A stretch of 41,841 bases of DNA from a virus (Duplodnaviria; Heunggongvirae; Uroviricota; Caudoviricetes), in the IMG/VR virus record IMGVR_UViG_3300033156_001223, positions 1 through 41,841 of that record; one strand, 5' to 3'. The notes beneath the pieces were generated by a model, which worked only from the letters and a program-made list of their open reading frames with translations, made no database searches and was not told where the DNA came from. This document shows positions 1 to 29,043 of this stretch, piece after piece. Position 1 is the first letter of the stretch. The number at the start of each line of letters is the position of its first letter. The translations under genes were made by a program, and so were the position numbers.

Positions 1-68
1 TTCTCATATTTACGGAGGAATAGTCTTCTTCCTTGCTCTGTCTCATGCCCGTGCGAAACTACTTTCAT
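1..68 (-). CDS. 5' part of another array-1 paralog, truncated by window edge (MKVVSHGHETEQGRRLFLRKYE...)
   Basis: Manual translation from ATG at 68, SD GGAGGGGG directly after the stop of the previous gene; N-terminus matches MRVAEHGQE/MKVVEHGEE of neighbours. Confidence 0.7.
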   Translation of the reverse strand, partial: MKVVSHGHETEQGRRLFLRKYE

Positions 69-77
69 ACCCCCTCC

Positions 78-527
78 TTATGAAATATGTATTTCTTCTA
101 CTTCGAATCCATACCTCCCCAAAATCTCACGAACTTGTGCCCAAAACAGAGGAATTTCTACATCATCTGATATGTATTGATGATAACTTAGTAATTCCAG
201 AAGGGAAGCGGCTAAATCTATCATTTCTTGAAGATCATCAAGACTAAGGTCTCCTTGTAAATAATAATGCACATGTTGCACCACATCACAGCATAAGACT
301 AATGCCCTAGTCTGGGCAATTTTGGAATCTGTTATCCCAAAAAGCCCGGCTTTCTCATTTTTACGTAGCCAAAATCCAGTCGTACCTTCAAGTGCAGCAC
401 TAGTCAGTTGATAAGTATTGTGGCATATCCTAAACTCCTTCTTTACATTCTCTGGGCCTCTATAATGCCTAATAATTACTTTATTTGTTTGGTTATTTTT
501 TTCTTGATCATGAAGAACTACTTTCAT
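78..527 (-). CDS. Array-1 paralog, hypothetical (~150 aa)
   Basis: Start moved from 548 to ATG 527 (MKVVLH, purine-rich SD-like GGGGGATAGG). Shares F-x-I..Y.LT..AL.G..GFW and DLQE.IDLA..L..LL.YH.Y motifs with neighbours. Confidence 0.8.
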   Translation of the reverse strand: MKVVLHDQEKNNQTNKVIIRHYRGPENVKKEFRICHNTYQLTSAALEGTTGFWLRKNEKAGLFGITDSKIAQTRALVLCCDVVQHVHYYLQGDLSLDDLQEMIDLAASLLELLSYHQYISDDVEIPLFWAQVREILGRYGFEVEEIHIS

Positions 528-537
528 CCTATCCCCC

Positions 538-987
538 CTACGAAACATCCCGAAATTCTATCTCAAACCCGGTCTTATTGAATAGGTCATATAATTTATG
601 CCAAAAATCGTCAAGATATGACGATCCAACTACATATCCCCAATGATATAGTAATCTACTAAGAGCTGCAGCTAGGTCTAATATCTCCTGCAAATCATGA
701 ATAGTTACTTTTCCGTTTAAATAGTCTACGGTCCGTGCCCGAATGATATCATACAAAGATTCTAACCGCTCTTTAATTTCGTCAATATCATCATTTACTT
801 CGAAGTAGGCTCCTCCTCCATGCATTACCCAGAATCCTGATTCTCCTTGGAGAGCCTTATCAGTTAAATAGTAGTGAACTCCGTCAACTATGAAGGGTGT
901 AAACATGCGAGGATTAATTTCATGATAATGCTTAAAAATGATCTTCTTTTCATGATCTCTTTCTTGTCCATGTTCTGCCACTCTCAT
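538..987 (-). CDS. Array-1 paralog, hypothetical
   Basis: ORF track; SD GGAGGG, TAG-C-ATG coupling; family motifs ALQGESGFW and DLQEILDLA. Confidence 0.85.
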   Translation of the reverse strand: MRVAEHGQERDHEKKIIFKHYHEINPRMFTPFIVDGVHYYLTDKALQGESGFWVMHGGGAYFEVNDDIDEIKERLESLYDIIRARTVDYLNGKVTIHDLQEILDLAAALSRLLYHWGYVVGSSYLDDFWHKLYDLFNKTGFEIEFRDVS

Positions 988-988
988 G

Positions 989-1450
989 CTACCCTCCTAC
1001 ATTTTCATGTTCTGTAGGAACACCTTCGATATCTATATCAACTCCCCCTCTTCTTAGTAGCTCACAAATTTCCGTCCAACAACAGTCACATTGATTCTCT
1101 GAAAAATAGTCGTGCCGAAAGAGGAGGCCGATGATGGCTACACATAAATCTACTGTGTTCTGTAGATCTGATAATGATAACCGGCCACGCAAAAATTCTG
1201 CAGTGAACTCTTTTATAGTAGTATACAAAGCTTTTACTGCATCAGTAACACAATGTTCGGAAATAGGGAAAGTACATAAAACACCATCCCGGGTGAGCCA
1301 AAAACCATCCCGCCCCCGCAGAGCAATATTTGCCAAAGAGTAGATAGATTGTCCTATTTCAAAACTAGTTTTTGAGTAATCAAAACTCTTATACCAACGA
1401 ACAGTAACTCTATATCTTGACTCTGAATTATGAGGATCTCCGAATCTCAT
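989..1450 (-). CDS. Array-1 paralog, hypothetical
   Basis: Start moved from 1477 to ATG 1450 (MRFGDPH; GGGAGGAGAA-TAG-C-ATG); motifs ALRGRDGFW and DLQNTVDL. Confidence 0.8.
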   Translation of the reverse strand: MRFGDPHNSESRYRVTVRWYKSFDYSKTSFEIGQSIYSLANIALRGRDGFWLTRDGVLCTFPISEHCVTDAVKALYTTIKEFTAEFLRGRLSLSDLQNTVDLCVAIIGLLFRHDYFSENQCDCCWTEICELLRRGGVDIDIEGVPTEHENVGG

Positions 1451-1451
1451 G

Positions 1452-1907
1452 CTATTCTCCTCCCACGTGTAATGCATCAGTAATTTCGAACCCTAGATCA
1501 CGGAATAGCTTATGTAATTTGGGATAAAAATCGGTAACATCTGAAAAATCTGGTAGGTAATCATGATAGTTAAGTAGTGCAGTAAGTGAGAAGACCAAAT
1601 CTAGGAATTCTTGCAGATCCTCTACTGATAACTCACCATCTAAGTATCGGTCTGTATATATACAAGCAATATCATATAGAGTTAATAGACCTGCTTTAGC
1701 AGTTGTAGTATCTACTATTTTAAAGAAAGTGCCACCTGGATATAATACCCAACACTTTGGTTCTCCCAGAAACGCACTATCGAGTATGTGAAAATCAGCT
1801 CCTCCAACTTTAAAAGGTTCTCTCATTCGTGGGTGAATGCCTTGGTAAAAATTGAAGACAAGCTTTTTATCATGTTTGGTCTCCTCTCCGTGTTCTACCA
1901 CTTTCAT
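1452..1907 (-). CDS. Array-1 paralog, hypothetical
   Basis: Start moved from 1952 to ATG 1907 (MKVVEH; GGGAGGGAGAG-TAG-C-ATG); closest to 538..987 (shared HG.E..H.KK..F..Y..I.PRM..PF.V.G). Confidence 0.85.
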   Translation of the reverse strand: MKVVEHGEETKHDKKLVFNFYQGIHPRMREPFKVGGADFHILDSAFLGEPKCWVLYPGGTFFKIVDTTTAKAGLLTLYDIACIYTDRYLDGELSVEDLQEFLDLVFSLTALLNYHDYLPDFSDVTDFYPKLHKLFRDLGFEITDALHVGGE

Positions 1908-1908: not shown

Positions 1909-2367
1909 CTACTCTCCCTCCCTATATAACTCATCAGTAAGTTGAAATCCACTATCAGAAAGCATGTCGTAGATCTCGATTCTACGGGCTAAGTAGTATG
2001 TTGATGAGATGTATGCATTGAACTTTAAGAGTCTTATAAAGGCAATGATTAGATCTATAGCGTTTTGTAGGTCTGCAATTCGCAACTCCCCGGTATTAAA
2101 GCGAGTCACTACTTTATCCAAAAATTTCAATGCTTTATCTATTTCTTTATGAACTTGCCTTATAGTTTCAACGAAGCCAAATGGTTCCACTTCTGTTCCT
2201 TCCAAGAGTGTTATCCATCGACCTGGTCTGCCCAACAATGCTGCTTCTGTGAATCGGAGATCATATCCATCTATTTTGAAGCTCTTATTCTTATTGAAAA
2301 TATCTATAATGTTTGGATAAGAAGGAAGACGGACAGACATACTCCGATGGTGATTTATTACTCTCAT
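1909..2367 (-). CDS. Array-1 paralog, hypothetical
   Basis: ORF track; ATGA overlap, SD GAGGAAGAGG; motifs FTEAALLGRPGRW and DLQNAIDL. Confidence 0.85.
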   Translation of the reverse strand: MRVINHHRSMSVRLPSYPNIIDIFNKNKSFKIDGYDLRFTEAALLGRPGRWITLLEGTEVEPFGFVETIRQVHKEIDKALKFLDKVVTRFNTGELRIADLQNAIDLIIAFIRLLKFNAYISSTYYLARRIEIYDMLSDSGFQLTDELYREGE

Positions 2368-2759
2368 ACCTCTTCCTCCTCACAGTCTCTAAGAGATTCC
2401 ACACAAATCTCATGACTGGCTAGAAAATTAAGTATTACTGCTTTCCAAGCCAAATAAAATACCTCTGGTAAGTAACCATTAGCATATAAAAGCCAAATGA
2501 AGGCCATGGCAAGATCAAATGCATCCTGTAAATCTTGAAGCTGTATTTTCTGATTTAGAAAGTCTGATATTACTATTCCTAAAAATCTAATTACTTTTGC
2601 TACTTCTTTTTCAACATAAATAGGATCTCTCTCAACAAGCCCAAATGGATCTATAGGCATTACCCCCCTCAGTTCAATCCACCAGCCGGTTTCAGCATCG
2701 AAAGCTTCTCTAGTAAAACGAAAGCAACATTCCCCTACTTTAAAACTTCTCTCTCGCAA
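2364..2759 (-). CDS. Array-1 paralog lacking the family N-terminal ~25 aa; start uncertain
   Basis: Homology to 1909..2367 (SFK.....RFT..A.....G.WI.L......PFG.VE; DLQDAFDL). TTG start without SD. Confidence 0.7.
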   Translation of the reverse strand: MRERSFKVGECCFRFTREAFDAETGWWIELRGVMPIDPFGLVERDPIYVEKEVAKVIRFLGIVISDFLNQKIQLQDLQDAFDLAMAFIWLLYANGYLPEVFYLAWKAVILNFLASHEICVESLRDCEEEEV

Positions 2760-7258: not shown

Positions 7259-9703
7259 TTATGAGAAAGAGGCAGTAAAAATTAGAGGTCGATAGACATT
7301 GTCAGTAGAATCCCAGTAGCTACTTACTAAGTAGTAATTACTGTTACATCTTACCACCTTAGCACTAGCTACTGTCCTTTCACTTAAAAGAATCCTGTTT
7401 TCGAAATTATCTTGCCCGGTTAAGACATACAATCGATTATTTCTGTCAGTATGGGCTATTAGAGCTACTAACTCATCCTCCCTACCCCTAATCCCACAAT
7501 TCCTACTGGTAGAATAATTACAAGTGTAGAAAATAGAAGAAGAAATAAGATTTCCTGTAGAAAAAAGAAGTCTATATAGGTTGATCTGATTATCTGCAAC
7601 TGAAACCAAGACCCAAACCTCATCTCCTATCTTTTCTGCTCCTCCTATTGCATTTTCATCAGTGGAAACAACTGGATATGGTCCTCTCCATGTACTTGCA
7701 ATATCCTCGGAAATCATAAGCTCAATTCTATTAGCTGTAGATGAGTAGTAACATACCAAGAAGATTTCATCATAACATGCTATTTCAATCGGATGACCAG
7801 AAACAGACGGCCAGTTAGTATCTTCAACCCACCCATTAGGATCACTGGCATCAGGGGCTAAATAATTCTTAACATTTCCACCAACCTCAGCCCAGATATG
7901 GTATTTCTGGGTATAGGGGCAGTAAACTCCCATCAAACGATTGACGCCATTAACAGAATAGGAGAGAGACCAGTTAGTTAAATCTGTAGATTCAAACACT
8001 GAAGTTGTATTAGTATCAGTTTGCCAAAAAAGGTAATACTTCTCATCATCCTTACCAAGTGTAAAGATAGGAGAATTATAATAAACCTCATCTGGAAACG
8101 AGTCTCCTTCTCCAACATATTCATTTAGTATTTTGAAAGACTTAGCAGTTTCTAAAGTAGTTAATTCTGGCTCTTCCTCTAAAATCTCTTCTACTCTTTC
8201 CGGGCTAACATAATAAAAATAAGTATCCTTAGTATAAACATAATCTGCGGGAACTAGTGCTGCACTTCCAGCAACCAATAATACATCTGCATATTCCTTG
8301 TGGCCATTGGCATCATCAAACTGGAAGAGGGGAGTATTATCATCTCGGGCGATCGCCAAAGAAGTACCAGCTGGTTTGGCATTAGTTAAAAAGGCGGCTA
8401 CTGCTGGACTGACTAGAGTCCAATTGGCATGAATCTTCTGGAGTCTGACAATGAATGTGTAATATTTGCGCCATTCATCATACCCAAACCCCTCCCACCA
8501 ATCCGGCTCTTTAATATAATCAATAATATCTATTCCACCACTCAATGGAGTTCCAGCAGACAAAACATCTCCCACTGCTATCTCTCTATCTTTTTCTACT
8601 GGATGATTTGCTACTCCATAAGAAGAGGGGAATTCGAAGCTCTCGTAGTTACCATCAAAATATTGCACGACAATAACAATACTAGTAGCACTACGGTTAA
8701 TCCCCAACACTATTCCATCTTTACTCATAAAGGGAAGCCCTAACAATAATTTCAACCCGCTGGAAAGATTACCCAGAGTAGGCCCCTTCCAAAGAGCTCC
8801 CATAATTCCATAAATCATTCCCTTGTATTGATCAGTAGTATGTGACTTTTCCTCCAAAAGTATCCGGCATATTCTTCCAAAAGTATTGACCAATACTGTA
8901 TTGTCATAATAAATTCTTTCTGCCCAGCCTACATCAGGCCAGCTTGGATGGTAAAAATTAAGAGCAGAGCCCTTTCTCTCATAATGCACACCATCTCTTT
9001 GAGCAGGAAGTGGCAGAATCTCTCCTCGGTTCGGCAAAGAGTATATGGTAGGAACCAGCTGAACACGGGAGTGAAGAGTAGGATCTATATACTCTAAGTA
9101 ATCAATAGTAGCCCTCCCCCCATAGAAATTCACTGGATCAATCGCCTTCCAAATGTCTTCACATTCATATAAATCAACATTAGAAATACCAAAGCAATCC
9201 ACCGTAAAATTATCTACCTGAGGACCCAAAAGTTCAAACCCACCAGTAAGATTGGCCACTGTGTAAGTTACTGCAAATACTCCAGATACTGAACACGGAG
9301 CGTAGGATGCAGTGAAAGTTACTGCTTCTCCAACTTCTAATAACTCCTCTCCATAATGAACTACTACTTGGTTGCTATTTGCGAATCCTGCTACTAATTT
9401 TGACCCTACTCTTCCTACCCAGATTGAATTATGAAGATGAGGGGATTTTGTATAGAAATAACCAATTAATGGGCCATATCCTCCAGAGAGAGGTGTGAAA
9501 GTAGCTCCCCATTCAAGCCTCACATCTTCAGTAGCTTCAGATCTTAAAGGGAGATACGCCCGGTCAGATGCATATTTTAGCTGCCAGCTTCCCTCAATTC
9601 TTCCATACTCCGGGCTCCACTGAAGCGCAGAAATTCCTCCTTCTGCTAGACTAGCAGCATCTCCCCCTTCAATTTCCAGATTTATGCGATAATAGACACT
9701 CAT
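7259..9703 (-). CDS. Baseplate wedge (gp7/P2 gpI-like) domain protein with N-terminal beta-sandwich-like region and C-terminal Asp-box-like beta-propeller
   Basis: Central segment YKGMIYGIMGALWKGPTLGNLSSGLKLLLGLPF...FLTNAKPAGT resembles the wedge core of large myophages (recalled, not searched); C-terminal ESTDLTNW and SEDIASTW resemble Asp-box repeats. Confidence 0.55.
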   Translation of the reverse strand: MSVYYRINLEIEGGDAASLAEGGISALQWSPEYGRIEGSWQLKYASDRAYLPLRSEATEDVRLEWGATFTPLSGGYGPLIGYFYTKSPHLHNSIWVGRVGSKLVAGFANSNQVVVHYGEELLEVGEAVTFTASYAPCSVSGVFAVTYTVANLTGGFELLGPQVDNFTVDCFGISNVDLYECEDIWKAIDPVNFYGGRATIDYLEYIDPTLHSRVQLVPTIYSLPNRGEILPLPAQRDGVHYERKGSALNFYHPSWPDVGWAERIYYDNTVLVNTFGRICRILLEEKSHTTDQYKGMIYGIMGALWKGPTLGNLSSGLKLLLGLPFMSKDGIVLGINRSATSIVIVVQYFDGNYESFEFPSSYGVANHPVEKDREIAVGDVLSAGTPLSGGIDIIDYIKEPDWWEGFGYDEWRKYYTFIVRLQKIHANWTLVSPAVAAFLTNAKPAGTSLAIARDDNTPLFQFDDANGHKEYADVLLVAGSAALVPADYVYTKDTYFYYVSPERVEEILEEEPELTTLETAKSFKILNEYVGEGDSFPDEVYYNSPIFTLGKDDEKYYLFWQTDTNTTSVFESTDLTNWSLSYSVNGVNRLMGVYCPYTQKYHIWAEVGGNVKNYLAPDASDPNGWVEDTNWPSVSGHPIEIACYDEIFLVCYYSSTANRIELMISEDIASTWRGPYPVVSTDENAIGGAEKIGDEVWVLVSVADNQINLYRLLFSTGNLISSSIFYTCNYSTSRNCGIRGREDELVALIAHTDRNNRLYVLTGQDNFENRILLSERTVASAKVVRCNSNYYLVSSYWDSTDNVYRPLIFTASFS

Positions 9704-10365
9704 GATTCAGCTACTGCAACATATAAATTATTCTCATCAAAAATTATCCCTTCTATTACATTATCAAATTCTCCTACCTGAACTAGGCTGCTTCCCTGAA
9801 GCATATAGGTCTTGTTTTCGGCAGTTACAAATACTAAATTTCTACAACTAGCTATACCAGTAATAATATCATTGAGAGTAGCAACCACTATAGCTTTATT
9901 ATCAATCAGACGGTATAAATAATGAGTAGTGGCTAGATAGAAATTGGAAGCAGCATAAACAATACCGACTGCTGATTCTCCTGAAAGTATTTCTGTAGTT
10001 TCGTAAGTATTACTATCGTATATTAATACTTTACTACCACTTTGGAGCAGAATTAGTTCTTTCTCCTCTCCTTTGCACCCTCCAACTGCTGGATAATTCA
10101 CAGTAGTAGTTAGACTTTTTGAAGTGGCTGTAAGACTGTACAAATAGCTCTTGTTGGATTTAACACTAATAACTCTAGTATGCTGATCGTCTAATTTATA
10201 GGTAGTAACCGGACTTCCTTCTACACTCCCCAAACTTTCATCACTCTCAAGGTCATAAATAGAGCCGTTGCAGGTAATAGCGAAGATAGTTGAACCCACT
10301 GCTCCAATGACTCTAAAATCTTTAAATTTATAAGTGGATTGTTTTGTAGTAGAAGTAGGTTGCAC
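9700..10365 (-). CDS. Beta-propeller-like (WD40/PQQ-like) tail-associated protein; start uncertain
   Basis: Repeating short beta-strand pattern (NFYLAT..YLYRL, NLVFVTAENKTYML, NNLYVAV); GTG start without SD; ATGA-coupled to 7259..9703. Confidence 0.55.
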   Translation of the reverse strand: MQPTSTTKQSTYKFKDFRVIGAVGSTIFAITCNGSIYDLESDESLGSVEGSPVTTYKLDDQHTRVISVKSNKSYLYSLTATSKSLTTTVNYPAVGGCKGEEKELILLQSGSKVLIYDSNTYETTEILSGESAVGIVYAASNFYLATTHYLYRLIDNKAIVVATLNDIITGIASCRNLVFVTAENKTYMLQGSSLVQVGEFDNVIEGIIFDENNLYVAVAES

Positions 10366-11872
10366 AGTAATATATTGTCATATAATTAAGTTGCAGCCCA
10401 CCTTGAGCCTCAAAAGGTATTACCGCCGTAGTGGAATCTACATTCTGTAGCTGGGTGACTTCGACATGCTCTAAATTTTCTGTAGATTCATCAAACTGGA
10501 AATGATGAACTACCTGATAAGATATAGCCCTAGAAGCATAGTCTGAAGGGTACCCAGGATCACCAGATCTTGGTTCACAAACCAAAAAGATATCATTTCT
10601 AAATACAAGCAGCCCCACAGTACGACGTACTCTAGTACTACTATATTTGGTGTATTCTCCTACCGAAAAGTGCTTGATAGGAGTTTGCGAATTCTCTCTA
10701 CTCCATAAGGTAATAATTGTGTCAAAAGAAGCATCAGACTGATATCCAGTAACCCCCCAAATATATTCCTCAGTCGGGCATATCATATAGGAAAACTTCT
10801 CTCCATCATCATTGTAAGAATTGTTGATAATATCCTCTGATAACCAATCAAAATAAACTTCTCCCCAATTACTAGACTCCCAAGCCTTGGAAATAAATTC
10901 ATCAAGAGTATATAAATGCCAACCTCTTTGGGGTGGATCTGCTGCTATTGGCCCCTTTTTTAGCCACCACTTATTAGTCCAAGGATCGTAGATATGAAAC
11001 TGGCATTTATTTCTGGAATATAGCCATTCGTTTAAGTTTGGGTCATACATATCCAACCATCCCTTAAAAGAGGTGTTCGGGAATGAAGTGGGAAGAGAAA
11101 ATCTACCAATATACCTGCGGTCTGAATAATTAGTACTGAAACTACTAAACCAAGCAATTAGGTCGTTCTGGTAAGGATCAAATGCACACATAGCTGGGCC
11201 AGAAGGAAAGTCATAGAGACTTGGATGGTACGGATCATCTACAATCGCATCAAGTAGATTAATTCCATATATAGGCCTAATAATGTGAAGATACGTATTG
11301 ACTGTTGGAAGATGGGCAGGCCAGGTATGAGTACCTACATCACACCAATAAAAATATTCAGTCATAGCTTCCAAATAATCATCAGTAACCGTGCCAATTG
11401 AAACCCATTGTCTCTTGTTAGCTAGAAAGGCTCCTCCGTCGTCGACCCAGTTTCCGCCAACCCACAATATATCATCTCGCTGCGCCCCCAAATTCTGCCA
11501 ATCCAAGCCATACAATTTTCTGAATTTAGCTCTGTTTGTTCCATCACTACTACAAGTATCCGGGTTATCTTCCGTGTGGATTCCACTAGGCACATTTCCA
11601 TATCGATAATAAATATCGTTTTTGAAAATAGTAAGTTTCCCATTCAGCAATCCTATAGCAAAAATATATGAAGATAGTTGTCTATTTACTTGCTCACCAT
11701 GACTATAACAGCAATGAGTCTCCCAACTATATTTAATGCTTTCATTTGTTTGATAAGTCAATGGAGACAGATAGAACTCACCGGGAGTTATTTGATAGAC
11801 ATCGGCTTGCCAAGTAACAGACTCTAACGTACGAAGAATGTTATTATGGATGGTACCAGATCTAAACCTCAT
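10328..11872 (-). CDS. Probable tail/baseplate-associated protein, Trp/Tyr-rich
   Basis: Start moved from 11986 (overlaps upstream gene by 98 nt, no SD) to ATG 11872, 7 nt below TGATATAAT; first gene of a coupled set ending in the wedge-like gene. Confidence 0.55.
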   Translation of the reverse strand: MRFRSGTIHNNILRTLESVTWQADVYQITPGEFYLSPLTYQTNESIKYSWETHCCYSHGEQVNRQLSSYIFAIGLLNGKLTIFKNDIYYRYGNVPSGIHTEDNPDTCSSDGTNRAKFRKLYGLDWQNLGAQRDDILWVGGNWVDDGGAFLANKRQWVSIGTVTDDYLEAMTEYFYWCDVGTHTWPAHLPTVNTYLHIIRPIYGINLLDAIVDDPYHPSLYDFPSGPAMCAFDPYQNDLIAWFSSFSTNYSDRRYIGRFSLPTSFPNTSFKGWLDMYDPNLNEWLYSRNKCQFHIYDPWTNKWWLKKGPIAADPPQRGWHLYTLDEFISKAWESSNWGEVYFDWLSEDIINNSYNDDGEKFSYMICPTEEYIWGVTGYQSDASFDTIITLWSRENSQTPIKHFSVGEYTKYSSTRVRRTVGLLVFRNDIFLVCEPRSGDPGYPSDYASRAISYQVVHHFQFDESTENLEHVEVTQLQNVDSTTAVIPFEAQGGLQLNYMTIYYCATYFYYKTIHL

Positions 11873-11879
11873 CCCTGCT

Positions 11880-11888
11880 ATTATATCA
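11880..11888 (-). promoter_or_regulatory. Extended -10 TGATATAAT, leaderless geometry
   Basis: TGATATAAT-AGCAGGG-ATG; lies immediately after the stop of the last array-2 gene. Confidence 0.6.
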
Positions 11889-12281: not shown

Positions 12282-12356
12282 TTTCACCCCCTTTGTGTCA
12301 AATTGTTAAGTAGAGTAAAGTTTATAATAAGAGAAAAGAGGATACTACTCTTATCA

Positions 12357-13490: not shown

Positions 13491-13501
13491 TCTTCTTCCT
13501 C

Positions 13502-13885: not shown

Positions 13886-13908
13886 TACTCCTCTCCTGAT
13901 CGCGCTCC

Positions 13909-16752: not shown

Positions 16753-16784
16753 GGAACACCTCCATTAATAAGTTTTTCCTATTA

Positions 16785-16793
16785 GTTATAACA
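16785..16793 (-). promoter_or_regulatory. Extended -10-like element TGTTATAAC
   Basis: Intergenic, T-rich upstream, heads the accessory block 16752..11889. Confidence 0.6.
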
Positions 16794-16806
16794 AAAAATT
16801 AAGAGA

Positions 16807-17136: not shown

Positions 17137-19121
17137 AGTTTTCTAGTGCTAATGGTTCCTAACATAAGATGAGCAGTCCTTGGAACAGTATAAGTATCAG
17201 TAACTATAATTGTCTCTATTTTTCTATCAGACCGATGATATTCTAGTAAAGCATATACTGGTAAAGATATATAAGTTGCACCGCTTTTGTACAAAAGATT
17301 AATTAAATCAGATATTTCTAAATCGCTTCCTGGAGTTAGAGAGATTAAAAAGTTTTGGATTAGTTGTACCGCATATTCTTCACTTAAGTTATCTCCTCGA
17401 TAGTCTACATGAGCATGGACATAAATTGGCTCGTAGGCTTTAGCTAGAGGATCAGATACTACACAGCGATACTCATCATTCTCTAAAAAGCTTTGTAAAT
17501 CAGCAACAGTCTCTGAGGTTTCATAAATAATCCTCACCGACAACCCTTCTACTGGAGTATTTAAGTCATCATAAGTCTCGGTGAATTTTAGAGTGATTCC
17601 TTCTTTTGTAGAAAAAGCATAAGATGAATCTTGAGTTTCCACCCACCAACCTTTAGCATCAATTCCTTCTACTGTGAAACTAGTATAAGCAGGAACATTA
17701 GTATTAGCATCACCAGCAGCCAAAGATTGCACTTGAATATCATAATAGTAATAAGTTATGTTTCCAAAAACTTCTCGTTGAGTGTCCATTTGTGAAGCAC
17801 TAATTACTTGCCCAGGCTGAGCAGAATCAGGATCCTGAGAGTAAGCACCTAAAGGAACATACTGATATCCATTTGATGCAGTGAAAACCATATCGGGGGT
17901 AATATTCAGATAAGTTGGTCTAGTGAAAAATAATCGTATAGTTCCCTGGGCTTTGCCAATTTCCCCACCAGTAAAATTAGTAATCGCTCTAATCCCAATT
18001 GGATCTCTTTTTGGAATGTAGATGCCAGTAGCTGATAATGTGGCTGGGTCTAGAATTTCTACGTCAATAATTCTAATTAAAGGCAGGTCAATAAGAGTAG
18101 TAACATTTCCACTATCATCTCTACTTGATAAGCTAATTTCGGTGGTGATACTAGCTAAATTAAGACTTCTCGGTTGATGATCTGAAGTTAAGGCATAAAC
18201 ATCAACCTTGTTACCAGTCTTAATATAATATTCTGGATAAGCTGCTTCTCCAGTAGCACCAGGAACATTGGTATAAATTGGGACCAAATCTCGGGTCATT
18301 TCTGGATCAGAAGCACCAACTACATTTACATATTGCACATAAGGAAAATTCTCCATTACCAGAGTTCTAATTCCTCTCTCTGTAGTGGGAGTACGTTCGG
18401 TAATGGAGTCAAGAATGCGCTGGTATAGCTCCGCATTAGTCTCCTTATCGGTTCCGTTGATAACCGGATTCGGATTGGTAACTTTTACATATCCAGTAAG
18501 ACCAGATGCGTTTACAATGGAATTAGTTCCTACATTATACTCAGTTCCGGCCTCCTCTGCTTCTACAGATACATCCACATAATAAAATCCATCCTCAAAA
18601 TTAAGAGCCATTTGATCGGAGGTTACTTGAACTGTGCTGGTAGGATAAAATTTGAGGCCATCTGAAGTACTAAAGTAGGCGGTGGGCAATATTATTACAT
18701 TAGTAGGGTTAACAAAGTAAACTCTAACGGTAGTAGTAGCTTTAGTTCCACTTCTTCTAGTAAGCAAGAAATTTGAGGCCAAAGCGTCCATTGCCTCTTC
18801 GGTGAGAGATTGATAAGCAGAAATGTCTCCACTGCGTCTTAAATTAGCTACCTCTCTACGTAAAGCAGAAATAATAAGAGACATTGGTCCTACTAGCAAA
18901 TCATAAATGGCTGTCCCAGGAACTGGGTTAATGCTTGAATCGAATGCCTTAATTTTTTCTTGTAGGAATGTGATTATATTAGTATTCTCTTCAAACGGGT
19001 CAGTCCCTAGATACTCCAAGAGAGGCTGAATTACTTTTTCATCGAACTCAGATCCTTCAGAAATATCTATTTCCGAGTTCCAATTGGAAATTAATTCTAT
19101 TATATAATCGCGAGTGCTCAT
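17133..19121 (-). CDS. Baseplate J-like wedge protein (T4 gp6 / P2 gpJ family)
   Basis: GTAIYDLLVGP, LTRRSGTKAT..V, VSVEAEEAG..YNV..NSI, NP..VINGTDKETNAEL..RI..S are typical Baseplate_J motifs. Confidence 0.85.
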   Translation of the reverse strand: MSTRDYIIELISNWNSEIDISEGSEFDEKVIQPLLEYLGTDPFEENTNIITFLQEKIKAFDSSINPVPGTAIYDLLVGPMSLIISALRREVANLRRSGDISAYQSLTEEAMDALASNFLLTRRSGTKATTTVRVYFVNPTNVIILPTAYFSTSDGLKFYPTSTVQVTSDQMALNFEDGFYYVDVSVEAEEAGTEYNVGTNSIVNASGLTGYVKVTNPNPVINGTDKETNAELYQRILDSITERTPTTERGIRTLVMENFPYVQYVNVVGASDPEMTRDLVPIYTNVPGATGEAAYPEYYIKTGNKVDVYALTSDHQPRSLNLASITTEISLSSRDDSGNVTTLIDLPLIRIIDVEILDPATLSATGIYIPKRDPIGIRAITNFTGGEIGKAQGTIRLFFTRPTYLNITPDMVFTASNGYQYVPLGAYSQDPDSAQPGQVISASQMDTQREVFGNITYYYYDIQVQSLAAGDANTNVPAYTSFTVEGIDAKGWWVETQDSSYAFSTKEGITLKFTETYDDLNTPVEGLSVRIIYETSETVADLQSFLENDEYRCVVSDPLAKAYEPIYVHAHVDYRGDNLSEEYAVQLIQNFLISLTPGSDLEISDLINLLYKSGATYISLPVYALLEYHRSDRKIETIIVTDTYTVPRTAHLMLGTISTRKL

Positions 19122-19567
19122 AATTTACTAGCAATCTCATCTATTTTCTTACTAATTTTATCCAACTCTGTTAATACTTTGGCAGCCATCTTGGAGAACT
19201 CTTTAGTCACTTCCTGATCAGCACCAGATTCTTTCTCAATCGTAACATCTCTTGCAGGTAATACTCTTATTTCTTCCTCTTCCTCAGTAGCTTTTACCCA
19301 CCCCAAAATTTTTTCAGCTAGCTCTACCAGCTGTCTCTTTGGATCCGCCGCCTTCTTCAATACAACAATCTCCTCTTCAGTAATTGGAAAATCTTCCAAA
19401 AGCTCTTTATTATCACGCATCATTAGTAACATCGCAGCATTCATAAGACCACTAAGATTAAGACCATCGATCCACATATCTTCATCATCATCAAATTCGA
19501 AGTCTTCTTGCTCTGGATCTTCCCATATCCCAGCGTGCCTTGGGTTCCATTTTTTTGGCTTCATCAT
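19118..19567 (-). CDS. Hypothetical acidic protein
   Basis: ORF track; ATGA overlaps on both sides. Confidence 0.7.
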   Translation of the reverse strand: MMKPKKWNPRHAGIWEDPEQEDFEFDDDEDMWIDGLNLSGLMNAAMLLMMRDNKELLEDFPITEEEIVVLKKAADPKRQLVELAEKILGWVKATEEEEEIRVLPARDVTIEKESGADQEVTKEFSKMAAKVLTELDKISKKIDEIASKL

Positions 19568-20094
19568 TCCTCCTCCTCTCCTTCAATTTCGAAGAAAGCC
19601 TCAATTGGCAACCCAGTAATTTCCTTATGGGCAATCCCCAACTTCAAGGCTTCCCCTTTGGTTATAATGCTACCATTTTTAAAATATTTTTCAACATCTT
19701 TTTTCTTCATTTTAGTCGACTTGCATAATATCGAGGTAATCCTACAAAAGTAATCATCTAGTTCTTTTTTTGCCCCCGGAGTCTCATTATAATCAATTTT
19801 CCCATGAACAAAGTAAGGAGAATGAAAATAGAAGACACAATGAGGTAGTGCCCATCTCTCACCACCTCCAAGATAAATAAATAAAGCAGCACTACCTACC
19901 ATGCCCCCAGCGATAGTAATCACTTTTCCGGGGTAAGCTCTTAGTAAGTCAAAGATAGCTGCTGCGATTTCGGAATCACCACCACTACTACAGATGAGAA
20001 TGTAGGCAGGATCTCCTTCGAGATCAGTTAGATAATCTACCACATATCGCAAAGTTTTTGCATCAATTTCTCCTTGGATGCTGATCATAACCAA
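19564..20094 (-). CDS. clpP: ClpP-like serine peptidase (S14)
   Basis: ISIQGEID, ICSSGGD, GSAALFIYLGG (catalytic Ser), FYFHSP (catalytic His), ITKGEALKLGI; the catalytic Asp position appears substituted. Confidence 0.85.
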   Translation of the reverse strand: MVMISIQGEIDAKTLRYVVDYLTDLEGDPAYILICSSGGDSEIAAAIFDLLRAYPGKVITIAGGMVGSAALFIYLGGGERWALPHCVFYFHSPYFVHGKIDYNETPGAKKELDDYFCRITSILCKSTKMKKKDVEKYFKNGSIITKGEALKLGIAHKEITGLPIEAFFEIEGEEEE

Positions 20095-20543: not shown

Positions 20544-21133
20544 TTCACTAGCCTGGTATTATCTTTTTGTAAAGTTTTTTGAGCTGTTGTAGTTATCTCG
20601 GTCTCGACCTTTGTCTCAACCGGTTGAGTCATCCAATCCTTAAACTCTCCTTTCATTTGTTGCAAACATGCATTCACAGTAGATAACACAGTAACAACTA
20701 CAGCATCTGCTTGAGATATCAGAGTCAATATTCTCCGCAAATTCGATATCCCTTTGATTTTCTTTTGAGCTTCCGGCTTATTTTTCAGTTCCTCTTCGAT
20801 TTTCTCTTTCATTTTCCCTTCTATGCTCATAACAACCTTACCTGGGAGATTGGCTAAAAAATCTTGTACTTCCTGGGCGTTTTTCTCTATCTTTTGAGCA
20901 AATTCAACTGCATCTCCCAAAATATTATTTCGTAATTCAGTCAGTGGGTCAACAAACTTAGTTTGGAAATTGTGTACATGTTCTCTAACATCTGCTAATA
21001 ACTTAAGCTTTTGTGGGTTAATATGGCACTTCTCAAGCCAAGCCTCACGCAAAGCCTGAGTATCCAATTGTCCGTCTTTCCACAGCTGTAGCTTTTGATC
21101 TTGTACACTACTTTGCTGACCTTCGTCTGCCAT
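20540..21133 (-). CDS. Hypothetical coiled-coil protein in the baseplate region
   Basis: ORF track; coupled to the gp25-like gene. Confidence 0.7.
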   Translation of the reverse strand: MADEGQQSSVQDQKLQLWKDGQLDTQALREAWLEKCHINPQKLKLLADVREHVHNFQTKFVDPLTELRNNILGDAVEFAQKIEKNAQEVQDFLANLPGKVVMSIEGKMKEKIEEELKNKPEAQKKIKGISNLRRILTLISQADAVVVTVLSTVNACLQQMKGEFKDWMTQPVETKVETEITTTAQKTLQKDNTRLVK

Positions 21134-21554
21134 ATATCTTCCTCTCTAGTTTTTTAAATTGTTTATAATTAAGTAAAGCAGCTAATACTTCAGCAGATGC
21201 TAACAATGGCAACTGCCACAACAAACTCTTCAAATTTTTCGTTTTTACTTCTCCTTTCTTAATTTTTCTAAGAGCTTCAAACAAGGCTTTACTTTTAGTA
21301 GCCTTTTTTAGAGTTCTAGTAGTAGTATAACCAGCAGCTCCCGTAATTGCTACTGGTATTGCTGCAGTAATAGCCAAATTTTGTATTATATCCTTTTTGT
21401 ATTTGTCAAAGATTTCATCACCAAGCTTTTTCCCGTAATAATTTCTAAGATCTTGTCTGATAGCACTATAAAGAATGGGAGAGGCTATTACTACGTCTAG
21501 GGGCAGAGGAGATAAAGCTTGGCGGATAAGAGTATACGTAGTTGACTTCTGCAT
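21108..21554 (-). CDS. Basic protein with Ala-rich hydrophobic segments; apparently leaderless
   Basis: AITAAIPVAITGAAGY and LLASAEVLAALL segments, Lys-rich; no SD, TGCTATAAT 8 nt upstream. Confidence 0.65.
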   Translation of the reverse strand: MQKSTTYTLIRQALSPLPLDVVIASPILYSAIRQDLRNYYGKKLGDEIFDKYKKDIIQNLAITAAIPVAITGAAGYTTTRTLKKATKSKALFEALRKIKKGEVKTKNLKSLLWQLPLLASAEVLAALLNYKQFKKLERKIYGRRRSAK

Positions 21555-21594: not shown

Positions 21595-21628
21595 AAAAAG
21601 AAGGGGGAGATCACCCCTCCCCCTTCTT
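21595..21628 (-). terminator. Intrinsic terminator after the Clp ATPase gene
   Basis: AAGAAGGGGGAG-GGGTGAT-CTCCCCCTTCTT-TTT: 12-bp stem, 7-nt loop, U-rich tail; overlaps the TGA stop. Confidence 0.8.
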
Positions 21629-23569
21629 AGTTACTATAAGTTCTCCATTATCCACCTTTACCTGAATATTCTCTACTACTTCACGTACCAAGATCCCTGC
21701 TGCAGGATTCAAAATCTTATCAGTTATTACCCGCAACAATGGTCTAGCTCCTAACTCTGGCTGATAACCATGTTCAATCAGGTAACCTACTACTTCATCG
21801 TCATACTCTAGAGCTACTCCTTCCCTACCCAACACTTCCGCAACCTTATTAAGATGGTATTTGGCAATCTCAGCAAGCACATCCCGGGTCAGACTCTTGA
21901 ACAGGATTACCGAATCAATCCTGTTCAAAAACTCCAATCTTAGGTTCTTAGATAAGAAAGTTAGAACTTTTTCGTATTGTTTATCATAGTTCTCGTCATT
22001 GACTTCTCCCAGAGTATTTGTCAAGAAGTTAGAGGTGAATATGATTATGCAGTTACTGAAATCAACCATGTTACCCCTACCATCCGTCATCCTTCCATCT
22101 TCTAGCATGTCTAACAAAGCAGAAGTAACTGTTGAGGCCGCCTTATCAATCTCATCTAACAACACTACACAGTAGGGGTTCTTGCGAACCGCTTCAGTAA
22201 GTTGGCCGCCTTCTTCGTAACCAACATAGCCAGGAGGAGAGCCATATAGACGAGAAACTGAGTGAGGTTCAATATACTCAGACATATCAATTCTCACTAG
22301 CTTTGTTTCATCTCCAAACATTGCTTCGGCCAAGGCTTTGGCAGTCTCAGTTTTCCCCACTCCAGTAGGCCCTACAAATAAGAAATTGGCTACAGGTCTG
22401 TGACGGTAGTGTAGACCAAGTCGTCCTCTTCTCACTGCATCTGCCAATCTCTCAATCGCATGATCCTGTCCTTTTACTCTTTCCTTTAATGTCTCTTCCA
22501 GCCTCGAGAGCTTCTCCTTTTCACTAGCGGTGATACGGTGGACAGGTATCTTCGACTTCTTAGCAACTACCCACGCTACATCCATACTAGTTACTGTAGA
22601 TTGGAAAACATTGGAACTGATATGATTCAGAATATCTTGGAAGATTTTTCTAGCTTTTTGTTCACTAACCTGTTTGGCTTCTTCCAACTTAGCAAACAGG
22701 TCACTATCTTGCACTCCATAATTGAGTAAGACCATTTCCAATGTTTCACAGATATCAGCGACTGTTATATCCTGATTTTCTATTAAAGATGGAATATCTA
22801 AATTGAGAAGTTGAGATCTCGTTCTAACTAAAGCCATAGATTGATCCATCACATCAATAGCCTTAGCTGGAAGATTGGCATCATGAATAAAACGAGAAGA
22901 TAAAGTAGCACATGTAACCAAAACCTCATCTGACACTGAGATGCCATGAAATTCCTCATAAAGATGTTTTATTCCACGAAGAATTTCAGTGCATTCGGCA
23001 ATGGACGGTTCATAAACAAAAACCGGCTGTAAACGGGCTACCAATGCTCTATCTTCTTGTAAATGCCTTCGGAAATCATCGTATGTAGTAGCAAATATCA
23101 TCTTTGAGGTATTAAAGGCCAATTTTGACTTGAACATTTCAGTAATAGGAAGATCACCCTTTGCTTTGGTTAACTGATGGAATTCGTCGATAAATAAAAC
23201 TGCATTTTCATTCAATCCCATCTGCTCAAACAGAGTATTGACCCGATTTTCTACTTCTCCTTTTGCACATGCTCCTGCTAGAATTGAAGAGGCGTCGATC
23301 TGGTATATTGTCCAATCTTTCATGTAAGAAGGAACTTTTCCCTCTAGAATTCGAAAAACTAGTGCATGTACCACACTAGTTTTACCTACTCCGTGCTCAC
23401 CCAGAATCAAGGGGATGTTCCTCTTTCTTCTGCTCAAAACGTGTATTAACTGATTAACCACTTCATCCATCCCAATTACTGGATCAATCAATCCATCTTG
23501 GCAGGCCTCATTCAAGTTTAAGCAGATTTGATCCAGATTCATTTGACCAAGCTTGGCCTCCAACTCCAT
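21611..23569 (-). CDS. Clp/Hsp100 class-1 AAA+ ATPase (ClpA/B/C-like) without N-terminal domain
   Basis: NBD1 GEHGVGKT and LFIDEFH; NBD2 GPTGVGKT, RIDMSEY, PPGYVGYEEGGQLTEAVR, LLDEIDKA, GARPL; starts directly at the LD...A..G.IDPVIG segment. Confidence 0.92.
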   Translation of the reverse strand: MELEAKLGQMNLDQICLNLNEACQDGLIDPVIGMDEVVNQLIHVLSRRKRNIPLILGEHGVGKTSVVHALVFRILEGKVPSYMKDWTIYQIDASSILAGACAKGEVENRVNTLFEQMGLNENAVLFIDEFHQLTKAKGDLPITEMFKSKLAFNTSKMIFATTYDDFRRHLQEDRALVARLQPVFVYEPSIAECTEILRGIKHLYEEFHGISVSDEVLVTCATLSSRFIHDANLPAKAIDVMDQSMALVRTRSQLLNLDIPSLIENQDITVADICETLEMVLLNYGVQDSDLFAKLEEAKQVSEQKARKIFQDILNHISSNVFQSTVTSMDVAWVVAKKSKIPVHRITASEKEKLSRLEETLKERVKGQDHAIERLADAVRRGRLGLHYRHRPVANFLFVGPTGVGKTETAKALAEAMFGDETKLVRIDMSEYIEPHSVSRLYGSPPGYVGYEEGGQLTEAVRKNPYCVVLLDEIDKAASTVTSALLDMLEDGRMTDGRGNMVDFSNCIIIFTSNFLTNTLGEVNDENYDKQYEKVLTFLSKNLRLEFLNRIDSVILFKSLTRDVLAEIAKYHLNKVAEVLGREGVALEYDDEVVGYLIEHGYQPELGARPLLRVITDKILNPAAGILVREVVENIQVKVDNGELIVTKKGEG

Positions 23570-25528: not shown

Positions 25529-26212
25529 TTAATAAATCAAGAGGTCATAATGTTTGAGTAGGATATCACGGAGAAGTTTGGTTAGCTTAATTATGGAATT
25601 TTTATTATGATAGGCTAGAAGTTTATTAGCAAAAGCCTCATATGGATAGGGTAATAAATATCTACCTACACTCCTCCTAGTGCGTAGTATATAGGCTATA
25701 TCTGACTTACCAAACTTAATCGCAACTTTTCTGAACTCAGGCCACGGAGAAAAATTCCATACAATATATTCAATATATACTTCACACTCCTCTTTTCCTA
25801 CTTTTGAATATATGTCATATATTCTTATCATATTTGAATCTTCATCTTCAGGCCTATAGAAATTTTCGGGGGTAAGCTCAAAGTATTTACTAATAGAGTG
25901 ATGGGGTTCCTTCAGACTAATAGCACCTCGACAAATAGCGAAATAATATTTGTCTAATTGGTCTTTTGGCCGTGAAACAAGCCCAATTGGGTTAAACTTT
26001 GCCTCTTCATCTTTCAAATCCACATCCAGTAATAATAGGTAAGGATCGTTCGACTCAGTAAAGATATGAAGGGTGTCTTGTCTATAATTGTTATCAAATA
26101 GGTAGTCTACATGGATGGTTCGATGTTGATAGGATGGAGGAACACCACCTCTAGGTGGCTCCTCAATCATTTTTGTTATTATTGGGTATCGTCTGTGTTC
26201 CTCTACTCTCAT
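25529..26212 (-). CDS. Array-3 paralog, hypothetical
   Basis: Start moved from 26236 to ATG 26212 (MRVEEH; SD AGGAGGA); C-terminus PYEAFANKLLAY...LLRDILLKHYDLL. Confidence 0.8.
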   Translation of the reverse strand: MRVEEHRRYPIITKMIEEPPRGGVPPSYQHRTIHVDYLFDNNYRQDTLHIFTESNDPYLLLLDVDLKDEEAKFNPIGLVSRPKDQLDKYYFAICRGAISLKEPHHSISKYFELTPENFYRPEDEDSNMIRIYDIYSKVGKEECEVYIEYIVWNFSPWPEFRKVAIKFGKSDIAYILRTRRSVGRYLLPYPYEAFANKLLAYHNKNSIIKLTKLLRDILLKHYDLLIY

Positions 26213-26222
26213 TTTAATCCTC

Positions 26223-26909
26223 CTATGGTAATGCACTTAATAGAAAATCATAATTATTGAAAAGAATGTCTCGTAAGAGTTCTGGAAGTATAAAGAATTG
26301 GTTATCTCTATAAGCTAGGAGCTTCCCGGCAGCTTCAATATATGGCATACCAAGAATCTGTACCTGACTCTTTTCCTTTACTCTCATATCACAGTAACTT
26401 GTAAAATCTGATCCGTCTACTGTAATAAATGCAAATGGCATACTTATAATTGCTTCGTAGTCATATATCTTATAATAAAACATAACCATTTTGAGCCGGT
26501 CATCATAAAGCTCAGTCTCTAATGTTGAAACTAGGATCCCAGAAAAATTTTTGTCTTCACATCGATAATACTCATTCAGATCGGTTATAGTTTGAGGCCT
26601 ATCAGATGACATATGGAAATGTGCAGTAACCGCAGCACGACAAACAGCAAACCGATGGGTTATATAGACTTCTTCAGCATCCAAAATATTCAATAGCTTA
26701 TAAGGATATGCTGTGTTCTCAGTAAAATAAAGCCAACTTACTATGGCCTTGTCAAAATATTTGTCTAATTTGAAACTAGCGCGAAAACCTTTACCTCTGT
26801 ACACATACTCAACATGGAAGACTTGATGAGAAGCACCATCTTCATCTGTCCTTTTTCTCTCTAGAATTACTTTTCGTAGGGCCAAACAGTTATGGTCTTC
26901 TACTCTCAA
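26223..26909 (-). CDS. Array-3 paralog, hypothetical
   Basis: Start moved from GTG 26918 (which lies inside the SD AGGAGGTG) to TTG 26909, giving MRVEDH; C-terminus PYIEAAGKLLAY...LLRDILFNNYDFL. Confidence 0.8.
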   Translation of the reverse strand: MRVEDHNCLALRKVILERKRTDEDGASHQVFHVEYVYRGKGFRASFKLDKYFDKAIVSWLYFTENTAYPYKLLNILDAEEVYITHRFAVCRAAVTAHFHMSSDRPQTITDLNEYYRCEDKNFSGILVSTLETELYDDRLKMVMFYYKIYDYEAIISMPFAFITVDGSDFTSYCDMRVKEKSQVQILGMPYIEAAGKLLAYRDNQFFILPELLRDILFNNYDFLLSALP

Positions 26910-26921
26910 TTTAGGCACCTC

Positions 26922-27608
26922 CTAATTGACACGATATAGGAAATCGAAAAAGTAGAGTAACATATTCCAAATCTCGATAGATATTCCTATTCTATTGTGA
27001 TAACGTGTGTGTTCCTTGATTTTATCTGCAAATACTTCATAGGGAATATCCACGATTTGAACCCTGCAATAGGGGCCTTTTGATACTGTTTGATGAAGAT
27101 GATCATTATCAAGCTTATTTACCACAAGAGAGGCCTTATGAAGTGAATCAAAGGAATCCCACGAACTTTTATATATAATATGGAACACAGAGTGATCTTC
27201 AGTAACCTTCTCTAAATCAGTCGCCCATATTTTAATATTTTGAATTGCCACATCTTTCTTGAGACTAGATATATCATTCTCTGTAAGGGTTCTATATTTA
27301 GAATCCATATTATTTAATACAGCTTTGCAATGTACTATTCCTCGATGTGAAACTCCAACTTCTAAACTCGCTGGCAGATCTACTACCTTCTGAAACCTTC
27401 GTATACACCCAGATTGGTAATCATATTCGATTATTCCCAATTCGTAGAGTTCTAAGCGGAAAGAATAGAAACTATATACGGTTTTACGATAAACTTCACC
27501 ACATTGTTTATATTCAGCATAGTAAATGGAGAGTGGATGAAACTCGTCATGAACTACTTTAGTTATCTTCGGGGTAGGCGACGGACCTATATGATTTTCT
27601 ACTCGCAT
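26922..27608 (-). CDS. Array-3 paralog, hypothetical
   Basis: MRVENH start (no SD); PYEVFADKI and C-terminal LLYFFDFL. Confidence 0.75.
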   Translation of the reverse strand: MRVENHIGPSPTPKITKVVHDEFHPLSIYYAEYKQCGEVYRKTVYSFYSFRLELYELGIIEYDYQSGCIRRFQKVVDLPASLEVGVSHRGIVHCKAVLNNMDSKYRTLTENDISSLKKDVAIQNIKIWATDLEKVTEDHSVFHIIYKSSWDSFDSLHKASLVVNKLDNDHLHQTVSKGPYCRVQIVDIPYEVFADKIKEHTRYHNRIGISIEIWNMLLYFFDFLYRVN

Positions 27609-28276
27609 TTATAACTTGGTATAGGAGACAACAATACTGAAGTAGATAAATTTGTACCAAGACTAATTAACTCTGCAATGATATCATCATTTTCTTCGTT
27701 ATGAACCTCAAAGAGTTCAATTCCAAGATCATCTAATGAAAAAAGGCGTGGACGAAAAATCAATGAAGCCTCCCTTGTAGTAAAACTGGGAATTTCATGG
27801 TAGATGATAGTCAAACGAGTAGTTTCGGGCTCCTCATATCTGTATATAATATTGTGGATACAGATTATTTTATTGTTCTCATCTAACTCAATTGGTGGTG
27901 CATCAGCATCTACGACCCACAAAGCATCCTCACCAGACTCAGTTGATAATATCATTTGAAGGGTATACCCAAAATGCTTAAAGTAAACATCACGTTTATT
28001 AGTAGTAATTTTAGTTTGTAAATTCGGTGCAGAGGAAGGAGTGCTATAAACTACTCTTCCGAATTCTAATATATCATTATTCGGAGGTACAGGTTTATAC
28101 CATATTCTTTTGTAAATGCTAGCAATATTCTTATCTCCTTCCATGTCAATATACTCTATATGCCCGATTCGTACTTCTGATGATGTTTTTTCATCTTTTA
28201 CCCACGGCTCAAGAATCATGCCTTGAATTCTCTCTATTGTACGGAGATGTTTTTGGGTATGGTCAACAACTCGCAT
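27599..28276 (-). CDS. Array-3 paralog apparently lacking the family C-terminal helix
   Basis: MRVVDHTQ; close to 28321..29043 (EPW, RI.H..YID..G.K...S.YK); SD GGAGGGG. Confidence 0.75.
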   Translation of the reverse strand: MRVVDHTQKHLRTIERIQGMILEPWVKDEKTSSEVRIGHIEYIDMEGDKNIASIYKRIWYKPVPPNNDILEFGRVVYSTPSSAPNLQTKITTNKRDVYFKHFGYTLQMILSTESGEDALWVVDADAPPIELDENNKIICIHNIIYRYEEPETTRLTIIYHEIPSFTTREASLIFRPRLFSLDDLGIELFEVHNEENDDIIAELISLGTNLSTSVLLSPIPSYKCE

Positions 28277-28320
28277 AATTTCCCCTCCAATCGTTATCTT
28301 GGAAAGAAATTGACAAGCCC

Positions 28321-29043
28321 CTATTCAAGTAGCCAGTAATAACATTGGAAGAGCAGCTGTCTCAAGGTTCCAGTCAATAAAGGAATGTTGCTCTTAAATA
28401 AAATTTCTTTTACTGTTGTAAGATTCTCAAAAGAATCACATTCACACTGGAGCTCGGTTCTGCAATTTCCTTGCTCATCAAAGATCCTACACATAAAGTT
28501 TCTTATACTCTCGGGGACTATAGCTAGTGTTACTTCCTCTTCGTCATCACCATTAGAAGGAATACAATAATACTTAAGATTTATCATAAAAAGCCCATCT
28601 GCTGCTGAAGATGGATTTTCATAATTTAGCTCAACGACATTGATAACTGGTATTACAAGGTGTTCATATTCCTGAAAAATATGTGGACCCAACTTCTCAG
28701 TTACTGGTAAGTCAATATTTTTATCTGCCTCCAAGCTCAATACTAATAAACAGACAATTGCTTGGTTAAACAGTATACCGGTGTTATGAGAGGCATGAGT
28801 CAGAATAAGTTTAGGGCGAAGAACTGGTACGACATGATCAAAATCTACTCTACCAAGCACCAACGTATCATTATAATTTTGCATTAATTTGTAGAAGCTG
28901 CCTTGGCGTCTCTTACCCTTATCGTCAATATACTGTGCGTGGGCAATTCTAATATCATCGATCAAACCATCACTAGCAATTCTTCTCCATGGTTCAGAAA
29001 TCACCTTCTCCAATCTTATTTGTGTATGACTCACTACTTTCAT
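28321..29043 (-). CDS. Array-3 paralog, hypothetical
   Basis: MKVVSHTQ; SD GGGAGG; C-terminus LTGTLRQLLFQCYYWLLE. Confidence 0.8.
   Translation of the reverse strand: MKVVSHTQIRLEKVISEPWRRIASDGLIDDIRIAHAQYIDDKGKRRQGSFYKLMQNYNDTLVLGRVDFDHVVPVLRPKLILTHASHNTGILFNQAIVCLLVLSLEADKNIDLPVTEKLGPHIFQEYEHLVIPVINVVELNYENPSSAADGLFMINLKYYCIPSNGDDEEEVTLAIVPESIRNFMCRIFDEQGNCRTELQCECDSFENLTTVKEILFKSNIPLLTGTLRQLLFQCYYWLLE

Follow-up and report, generated by a model that had tools for sequence, protein, structure and literature searches.

The window analysed here, 41,841 nucleotides (nt) in length, is the first 41.8 kb of a 142.6-kb virus record in IMG/VR (IMGVR_UViG_3300033156_001223), which has 38% GC, is estimated to be 78% complete and whose recognisable genes point to an uncultured contractile-tailed phage, with nearly all genes of the contig on the minus strand. 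Two tandem arrays of paralogous genes in this window, array 1 and array 3, encode proteins that begin with the same hexapeptide, M[KR]VxxH, hereafter the tag. A sequence-only reading of the window had listed ten such starts, placed by the position of their Shine-Dalgarno sequences, and had seen in them a phage-specific sorting signal. All ten are indeed present on the minus strand, each encoding M[KR]VxxH, and nine have a GGAGG-like Shine-Dalgarno sequence 5–10 nt upstream; the exception, the start at 27608, has none of its own and comes after the stop region of the previous gene. The start at 26909 is a TTG codon, and the database protein P0012 is recorded with the same start. The genes of the two arrays, with protein lengths in amino acids (aa), are as follows.

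1..68, minus strand: 5' end of an array-1 gene with its start and Shine-Dalgarno sequence, MKVVSH; the remainder lies past the window edge
78..527, minus strand: array-1 gene, 149 aa, MKVVLH
538..987, minus strand: array-1 gene, 149 aa, MRVAEH; the member used for structure modelling
989..1450, minus strand: array-1 gene, 153 aa, variant start MRFGDPH (one residue extra, Phe in place of Val)
1452..1907, minus strand: array-1 gene, 151 aa, MKVVEH
1909..2367, minus strand: array-1 gene, 152 aa, MRVINH
2364..2759, minus strand: array-1 gene lacking ribosome site, start codon and tag; intact in the near-identical contig L001, MRVVPH
25529..26212, minus strand: array-3 gene, 227 aa, MRVEEH
26223..26909, minus strand: array-3 gene, 228 aa, TTG start, MRVEDH
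26922..27608, minus strand: array-3 gene, 228 aa, MRVENH, without its own Shine-Dalgarno sequence
27599..28276, minus strand: array-3 gene, 225 aa, MRVVDH
28321..29043, minus strand: first gene of array 3, 240 aa, MKVVSH
29076..29084, minus strand: extended -10-like promoter element TGGTATAAA, which precedes the array-3 start by 41 nt; five related contigs conserve it

Contig L001 carries array 1 further past the window edge, and there the gene starting at 68 is complete as a 148-aa member (L001:7263-7709). Relative to L001:4533-4595 the window has a 63-bp deletion at about 2759-2763, which removes the start codon of the array-1 gene at 2364-2759 together with its ribosome site, its tag and the first 15 codons, and which also changes the end of an upstream 117-aa gene. 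In array 3, P0016 (241 aa) is a variant of the gene at 27599-28276 that has the family's C-terminal helix; the window copy lacks this helix, and its early end and its overlap with the next gene suggest a frameshift near the 3' end.

A contig-wide scan for [KR]-V-x-x-H directly after a start codon returned 16 real genes and one spurious 42-codon frame, and one gene starting MQVVPH brings the tagged set to 17. Beyond the two arrays these are:

genome 70701: tagged gene, 107 aa
genome 104875, 105126 and 105359: three tandem tagged genes of 76–80 aa (the 77-aa trio)
genome 113265: dispersed array-1 paralogue starting MQVVPH
genome 125585: zinc-ribbon-like tagged gene, 81 aa
genome 130804: tagged gene, 99 aa

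A comparison with the background rate had been proposed as a check, and the motif proves to be far more frequent than chance: amino-acid composition predicts 0.03 M[KR]VxxH-type starts for the roughly 223 called genes, against which the 17 observed M[KRQ]VxxH starts are enriched about 500-fold. No protein of the contig contains the motif internally, and His6 is present in every called gene that starts MKV or MRV (14/14). The 33 non-redundant N-termini give the consensus M-[KR]-V-[VIE]-x-H with polar residues after it; Met1 and Val3 occur in all 33, position 2 is divided between Lys (16), Arg (16) and Gln (one), and position 6 is occupied by His in 32 and Asn in one. Positions 7–16 of the tagged set are 78% polar, compared with 56% in other genes (p = 2e-8), and positions 8–10 lean to Q/E, E/Q and K. 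Carriers are accessory genes only, of 76–240 aa, mostly acidic and fast-evolving. The abundant structural genes (capsid and sheath) lack the tag, which is therefore not a general expression aid.

The codon variation noted among the first ten starts extends to the 27 tag-coding sequences available from the phage and its relatives, in which Lys2 is encoded by AAA (7) or AAG (4), Arg2 by AGA (11), CGA (3) or AGG (1), Val3 by GTA (15), GTG (6), GTT (4) or GTC (2), and His6 by CAT (19) or CAC (7). Since this synonymous choice matches genome usage at each fixed position (p = 0.91 for Lys2, 0.19 for Arg2, 0.10 for Val3 and 0.91 for His6), the constraint acts on the amino acids, and the motif is conserved as a peptide. 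Orthologues in relatives agree, exchanging Lys and Arg at position 2 and varying freely at positions 4–5 while keeping Met1, Val3 and His6.

Carrier families and the spread of the tag

The tagged genes of the contig fall into six families, and all-against-all BLASTP connects carriers within families only. No tagged protein matched Pfam or PHROGs, leaving all of them orphans. Pairwise hhalign of the six families nearly always places the best local alignment at residue 1, over 6–40 residues, and once seven N-terminal residues are cut every family pair falls to a probability of 2.5% or less. Between arrays 1 and 3, which the sequence-only reading had described as dissimilar, hhalign finds no detectable homology past the N-terminus: the probability does not exceed 25% and the similarity is confined to the first ~40 columns (44 aligned columns at 25%), with nothing left after trimming 7 residues. 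Full-length homology between the arrays, which would have made the motif an inherited first β-strand, is thus not what the comparison returns.

The AlphaFold (AF2) model of array 1 is confident (predicted local distance difference test, pLDDT, 88; predicted template modelling score, pTM, 0.84) and consists of an α/β domain with three long helices. Because residues 1–9 have a pLDDT below 50 and the first secondary structure is a strand from residue 15, the remainder scoring ~90, the tag and a polar linker (residues 1–14) are predicted to lie outside the fold in this one family; the tag is not the first β-strand of the array-1 domain but is predicted to be disordered. With the array-1 model as query, PDB Foldseek, VIA-align wide and the ESM Atlas returned no more than weak or generic helical-bundle matches, and an array-1 profile search of 5.8 billion proteins matched nothing beyond the phage itself and the near-identical L001. 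The exhaustive profile search with array 3 recovered four distant homologues (E = 1e-13 to 1e-6), which start MRVIDH, MRVVDH, MRVISH and, in one case, MRVIDN. An ESM Atlas feature search placed the 77-aa trio (genome 104633-105359, L005:6633-7359) nearest to DpnD/PcfM-family clusters of ~65 aa (score 0.89). Were this assignment true, the extra residues of the trio would be tag and linker; we treat it as a lead only, the Pfam model PF14207 having no match in the contig at E up to 10.

Array 3 (window 25529-29134) is a hypervariable locus between conserved flanks. It holds five genes here and two in the related contigs L052, L055 and L057; L053 likewise has two, and L054 has one or more. One of the L053 genes encodes a 140-aa protein of a seventh unrelated family, which starts MRVEDH. 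In the contigs with array-3 homologues, close relatives of this phage, the flanks of the locus and the core genes are 73–81% identical in DNA to the window, with protein identities of 78% for the ATPase listed below, 82% for a neighbouring 588-aa protein and 90% for baseplate J. Over the close relatives, DNA identity in core genes spans 72–83%. Members of the array-3 family are only 14–24% identical pairwise; Met1 and Val3 are among the four invariant columns of their alignment and His6 is kept in 8/9. The tag thus persists in relatives though the protein bodies diverge to this extent. Homologues of the 77-aa trio occur in this clade only and are all tagged, with Lys/Arg swaps at position 2 and positions 4–5 free.

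The wider comparison involves a group of genes between the arrays, three of which recur in the argument below:

17133-19121: baseplate J
19564-20094, minus strand: ClpP-family protease inside the baseplate module (Pfam CLP_protease, E = 1.7e-17)
21611-23569, minus strand: double-ring ClpB/ClpC-like AAA+ ATPase without an N-domain

The order SNF2, sigma, 317-aa, 559-aa, ATPase, ClpP, baseplate J and 814-aa gene is conserved in a more distant relative, whose sheath is 54% identical to that of this phage. Missing from this relative are array 3, the array-2 block and the tagged 81-aa gene, three loci at which synteny is comparable, and it has no tagged gene in the ~65 kb walked; its array-3 locus carries a single 66-aa gene, which is on the opposite strand. 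In the window (7259-17136) ~7 kb, comprising array 2 and its neighbours, separates the 814-aa gene from baseplate J. As the distant relative has its 814-aa gene directly after baseplate J and a 108-aa gene, this ~7 kb is either a clade-specific insertion or was lost in the relative.

Directly after the ATPase, the window encodes a 148-aa basic protein with hydrophobic segments (21108-21554), which is 66% identical in close relatives and not detectable in the distant tag-less one; going by its neighbourhood, it may assist the ATPase as an accessory factor.

In IMG/VR, a tandem-tag pattern at array-1 spacing gave one match, MKVFYH on a 292-aa protein of an unrelated phage with 30% GC, consistent with chance, and a pattern of a single tag plus GGAGG gave 21 matches, about the number expected by chance and in no case with clustered tagged genes; these two scans revealed no other phage using the tag. 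No relatives came from single-protein scans of IMG/VR queried with one member each of arrays 1 and 3 and with the neighbouring 588-aa protein, an RNA polymerase query found one 14-kb relative with no tagged gene, and a metagenome scan with a conserved neighbour gene yielded just two further short contigs, of a type already known. As sampled, the tag is confined to one narrow clade, and there to accessory genes.

A recognition tag and its possible readers

We consider it highly probable that M-[KR]-V-(V/I/E)-x-H is a selected, clade-specific N-terminal recognition tag. This is the most likely explanation for an invariant N-terminus with a flexible linker that is found on unrelated, diverging bodies at variable loci and is carried by neither core nor abundant structural proteins. 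Through a flexible, polar linker of ~6–12 residues the tag would be joined to at least seven unrelated families of accessory protein, and one common receptor would read the free N-terminus through contacts with Met1, the basic residue 2, Val3 and His6. Such a receptor may load a variable cargo set into the virion, and the cargo would then enter the host alongside the DNA. We place virion loading first among the possible roles, a weak first place that we hold tentatively and by analogy with the capsid-targeting sequence (CTS) of T4.

The T4 CTS has a consensus of ~10 residues, MKTYQEFIAE-like. As a short peptide at the extreme N-terminus, it is the sole conserved feature of diverse, fast-evolving small proteins encoded at variable loci (PMC3012670). 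The likeness to the tag-bearing T4 proteins (IPI, IPII, IPIII and Alt) is that here too conservation among diverse proteins from hypervariable loci is limited to the tag; in sequence the two tags share a Met-Lys start and nothing else. The tag of this phage is otherwise an unrelated sequence of six residues with an invariant His, and whereas the T4 CTS ends in the prohead-protease site [LI]-x-E and is removed, no such site follows the tag. Nor is the phage T4-like: it encodes ClpP and a fused RNA polymerase of its own, and its capsid-protein candidate has 333 aa. Our literature search turned up papers on the T4 CTS and on ClpX signals, and none dealing with an M[KR]VxxH motif or with a tag-using Clp system in a phage. 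T4 already provides the principle of marking variable phage cargo with a constant N-terminal tag, and what is new here is the six-residue motif with an invariant His, the missing cleavage site, the non-T4 lineage and the phage Clp system alongside.

Several observations weigh against virion loading, or limit the case for a tag held outside the fold. None of the head-module proteins shares the tag, and [LIV]xE sites of the prohead-protease type within residues 7–25 occur in 6/15 tagged proteins and 64/208 others, at no fixed position. The gp21-type Peptidase_S77 model PF03420 has no match in this 78% complete contig, and likewise none in control genomes; for a candidate protease at 60095-61330, the sole match is a weak one to phrog_18299, with none in Pfam. 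The tagged genes occur near tail genes but also dispersed among genes for replication and nucleotide metabolism, and 12/15 of their products are acidic, with an isoelectric point of 4.1–5.7, which is unexpected for proteins packed against DNA. The array-3 AlphaFold model, mostly strands, is too poor (pLDDT 41) to place the tag outside the fold, and comparative power is limited because the tag has only six residues and comes from one narrow clade.

Ranked second, and in our view unlikely, is that the tag serves as an engagement handle or degron for a phage Clp-type machine. The disordered ~15-residue tail would enter the pore of the N-domain-less double-ring ATPase, leading either to degradation by the adjacent ClpP homologue, as a timed removal of accessory proteins, or to unfolding for delivery. 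Among the N-terminal signals recognised by ClpX is a class resembling the N-terminus of OmpA (PMC8138137). In this phage the ATPase, with a D2 GYVG pore loop, and the ClpP homologue are both encoded two to eight genes downstream of array 3. The tail-plus-linker layout of the array-1 model also matches the usual layout of AAA+ degrons, a short conserved terminus followed by a flexible linker and a folded domain, as in the N-motifs of ClpX and the degrons of ClpA/ClpC. The OmpA-like class of ClpX N-signal is said, in Flynn et al. 2003, to read Met-basic-hydrophobic, but we know of no Clp motif with an invariant His. The phage ATPase, moreover, is not ClpX but ClpB/ClpC-like; its alignment with ClpC is full-length, and that with ClpB falls into two pieces. 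The aromatic residue is missing from its D1 pore loop (AGACAKGE, compared with AGAKYRGE in ClpB), and its ClpP-docking-loop position reads TLGEV instead of the canonical I/L-G-F/L, making coupling to ClpP doubtful. A ClpS-like adaptor was searched for and not found in the phage. The ATPase and ClpP are also present in the distant relative with no tagged genes in ~65 kb, so the Clp pair is independent of the tag, and it is hard to see why hypervariable proteins would keep a destruction signal.

Somewhat less probable again is that the tag is read by another partner or chemistry, such as a His-dependent metal-bridged or pH-sensitive docking, a substrate mark for ubiquitin-like conjugation at the free N-terminus, or a hook for a host factor. 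The near-invariance of His6 (32/33), the frequent further His at positions 7–12 (H6+H12, H6+H8, H6+H7) and a ThiF-type E1 in the relative L058 speak for this, but Arg replaces Lys2 in half of cases and Lys2 is therefore no obligatory acceptor. We regard as improbable that the phage AAA+ unfoldase of the tail module, or another phage-encoded reader, reads a His-dependent label and unfolds or threads rapidly diversifying small proteins into the virion for co-injection; this would be a protein-delivery route joining Clp-type machinery to phage particles, with no described precedent. Extracellular contractile injection systems use N-terminal packaging signals on their cargo, and PVC effectors need the AAA+ ATPase Pvc15; there, too, disordered leaders mark diverse cargo, and here an AAA+ ATPase gene stands among tail and baseplate genes. 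The leaders of those systems, however, are ~50 residues long and poorly conserved in sequence, whereas this tag is a sharp six-residue motif in a phage that packages DNA.

We think each of the remaining explanations quite improbable. If the hexapeptide were selected for its own synthesis, as a nascent-chain or early-elongation sequence aiding translation of weakly expressed accessory genes, the strong GGAGG sites that most tagged genes also have would fit, as would the Lys or Arg codon right after the start codon, which is common in well-translated bacterial genes. Yet the highly expressed structural genes of the phage are without the tag, the invariant His6 and Val3 are left unexplained, and synonymous sites are free, so that no mRNA-level effect is indicated. 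Slightly lower in our estimate is that all tagged families are remnants of one ancestral gene and that the N-terminus is an inherited structural element, for example an oligomer strand. The tag has so far been found in one narrow clade, many carriers are tandem paralogues, and hhalign gives weak N-terminal similarity over ~22–44 columns (29% for array 1 and the 77-aa trio, 6–25% for arrays 1 and 3). This similarity is gone once 7 residues are removed, however, and the carriers range from 76 to 240 aa, with array 1 an α/β domain with three long helices and array 3 mostly strands (a low-confidence model), while the confident array-1 model leaves the tag disordered. Even under common descent, the retention of the tag on bodies 14–24% identical implies selection on the tag itself. 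Least probable, and disfavoured, is that the conserved element is a nucleic acid, either a translational operator for a regulator or a microhomology for cassette exchange. Although the conserved codons adjoin a conserved ribosome site and the arrays gain and lose members between relatives, the wobble positions of Val3, His6, Lys2 and Arg2 match the codon usage of the genome, and both AGA and CGA serve for Arg.

Should the tag be an address label, it would provide a listing, from sequence alone, of the clade's variable arsenal, likely host-takeover or anti-defence proteins, and a very short transferable handle (six residues plus linker) for steering foreign proteins to the machine that reads it. 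It would also mean that the T4 strategy of constant tag and variable cargo arose independently, with a different motif, in a non-T4 lineage, one that also has an RNA polymerase and a Clp system of its own. The invariant His is unusual and easily mutated, making the hypothesis directly testable.

Other features of the contig

Further recognisable genes are those for an amidase, a sigma factor and a SNF2 helicase, and outside the window those for a tail sheath, a fused RNA polymerase and a family A DNA polymerase, together with the 333-aa capsid-protein candidate, a weak one. A 302-aa transposase-like gene (phrog_506, E = 1.6e-104) adjoins the tail sheath/tube region (genome 51477-53385 region, L002:11477-12385).

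The intergenic region upstream of array 3 carries conserved divergent promoter-like elements, TTGACT-16 nt-TATCAT for a 141-aa gene and TGGTATAAA for the array. We considered promoter class as a divider between tagged and untagged genes and rejected it, as TGnTATAA[AC], present 41 nt before array 3 and the tagged 81-aa gene, also precedes many untagged genes.

A second recurrent N-terminus, MRLG, begins four genes, two in array 2 (window 12742-13140 and 13137-13490) and two elsewhere (genome 71795-72178 and 136608-136862), the latter without BLASTP similarity to the array-2 pair. Similar variants are MELG (13502-13885), MKMG (13909-14556) and the MRFG of the array-1 gene at 989-1450, and the phage may use MRLG as a second short N-terminal tag.

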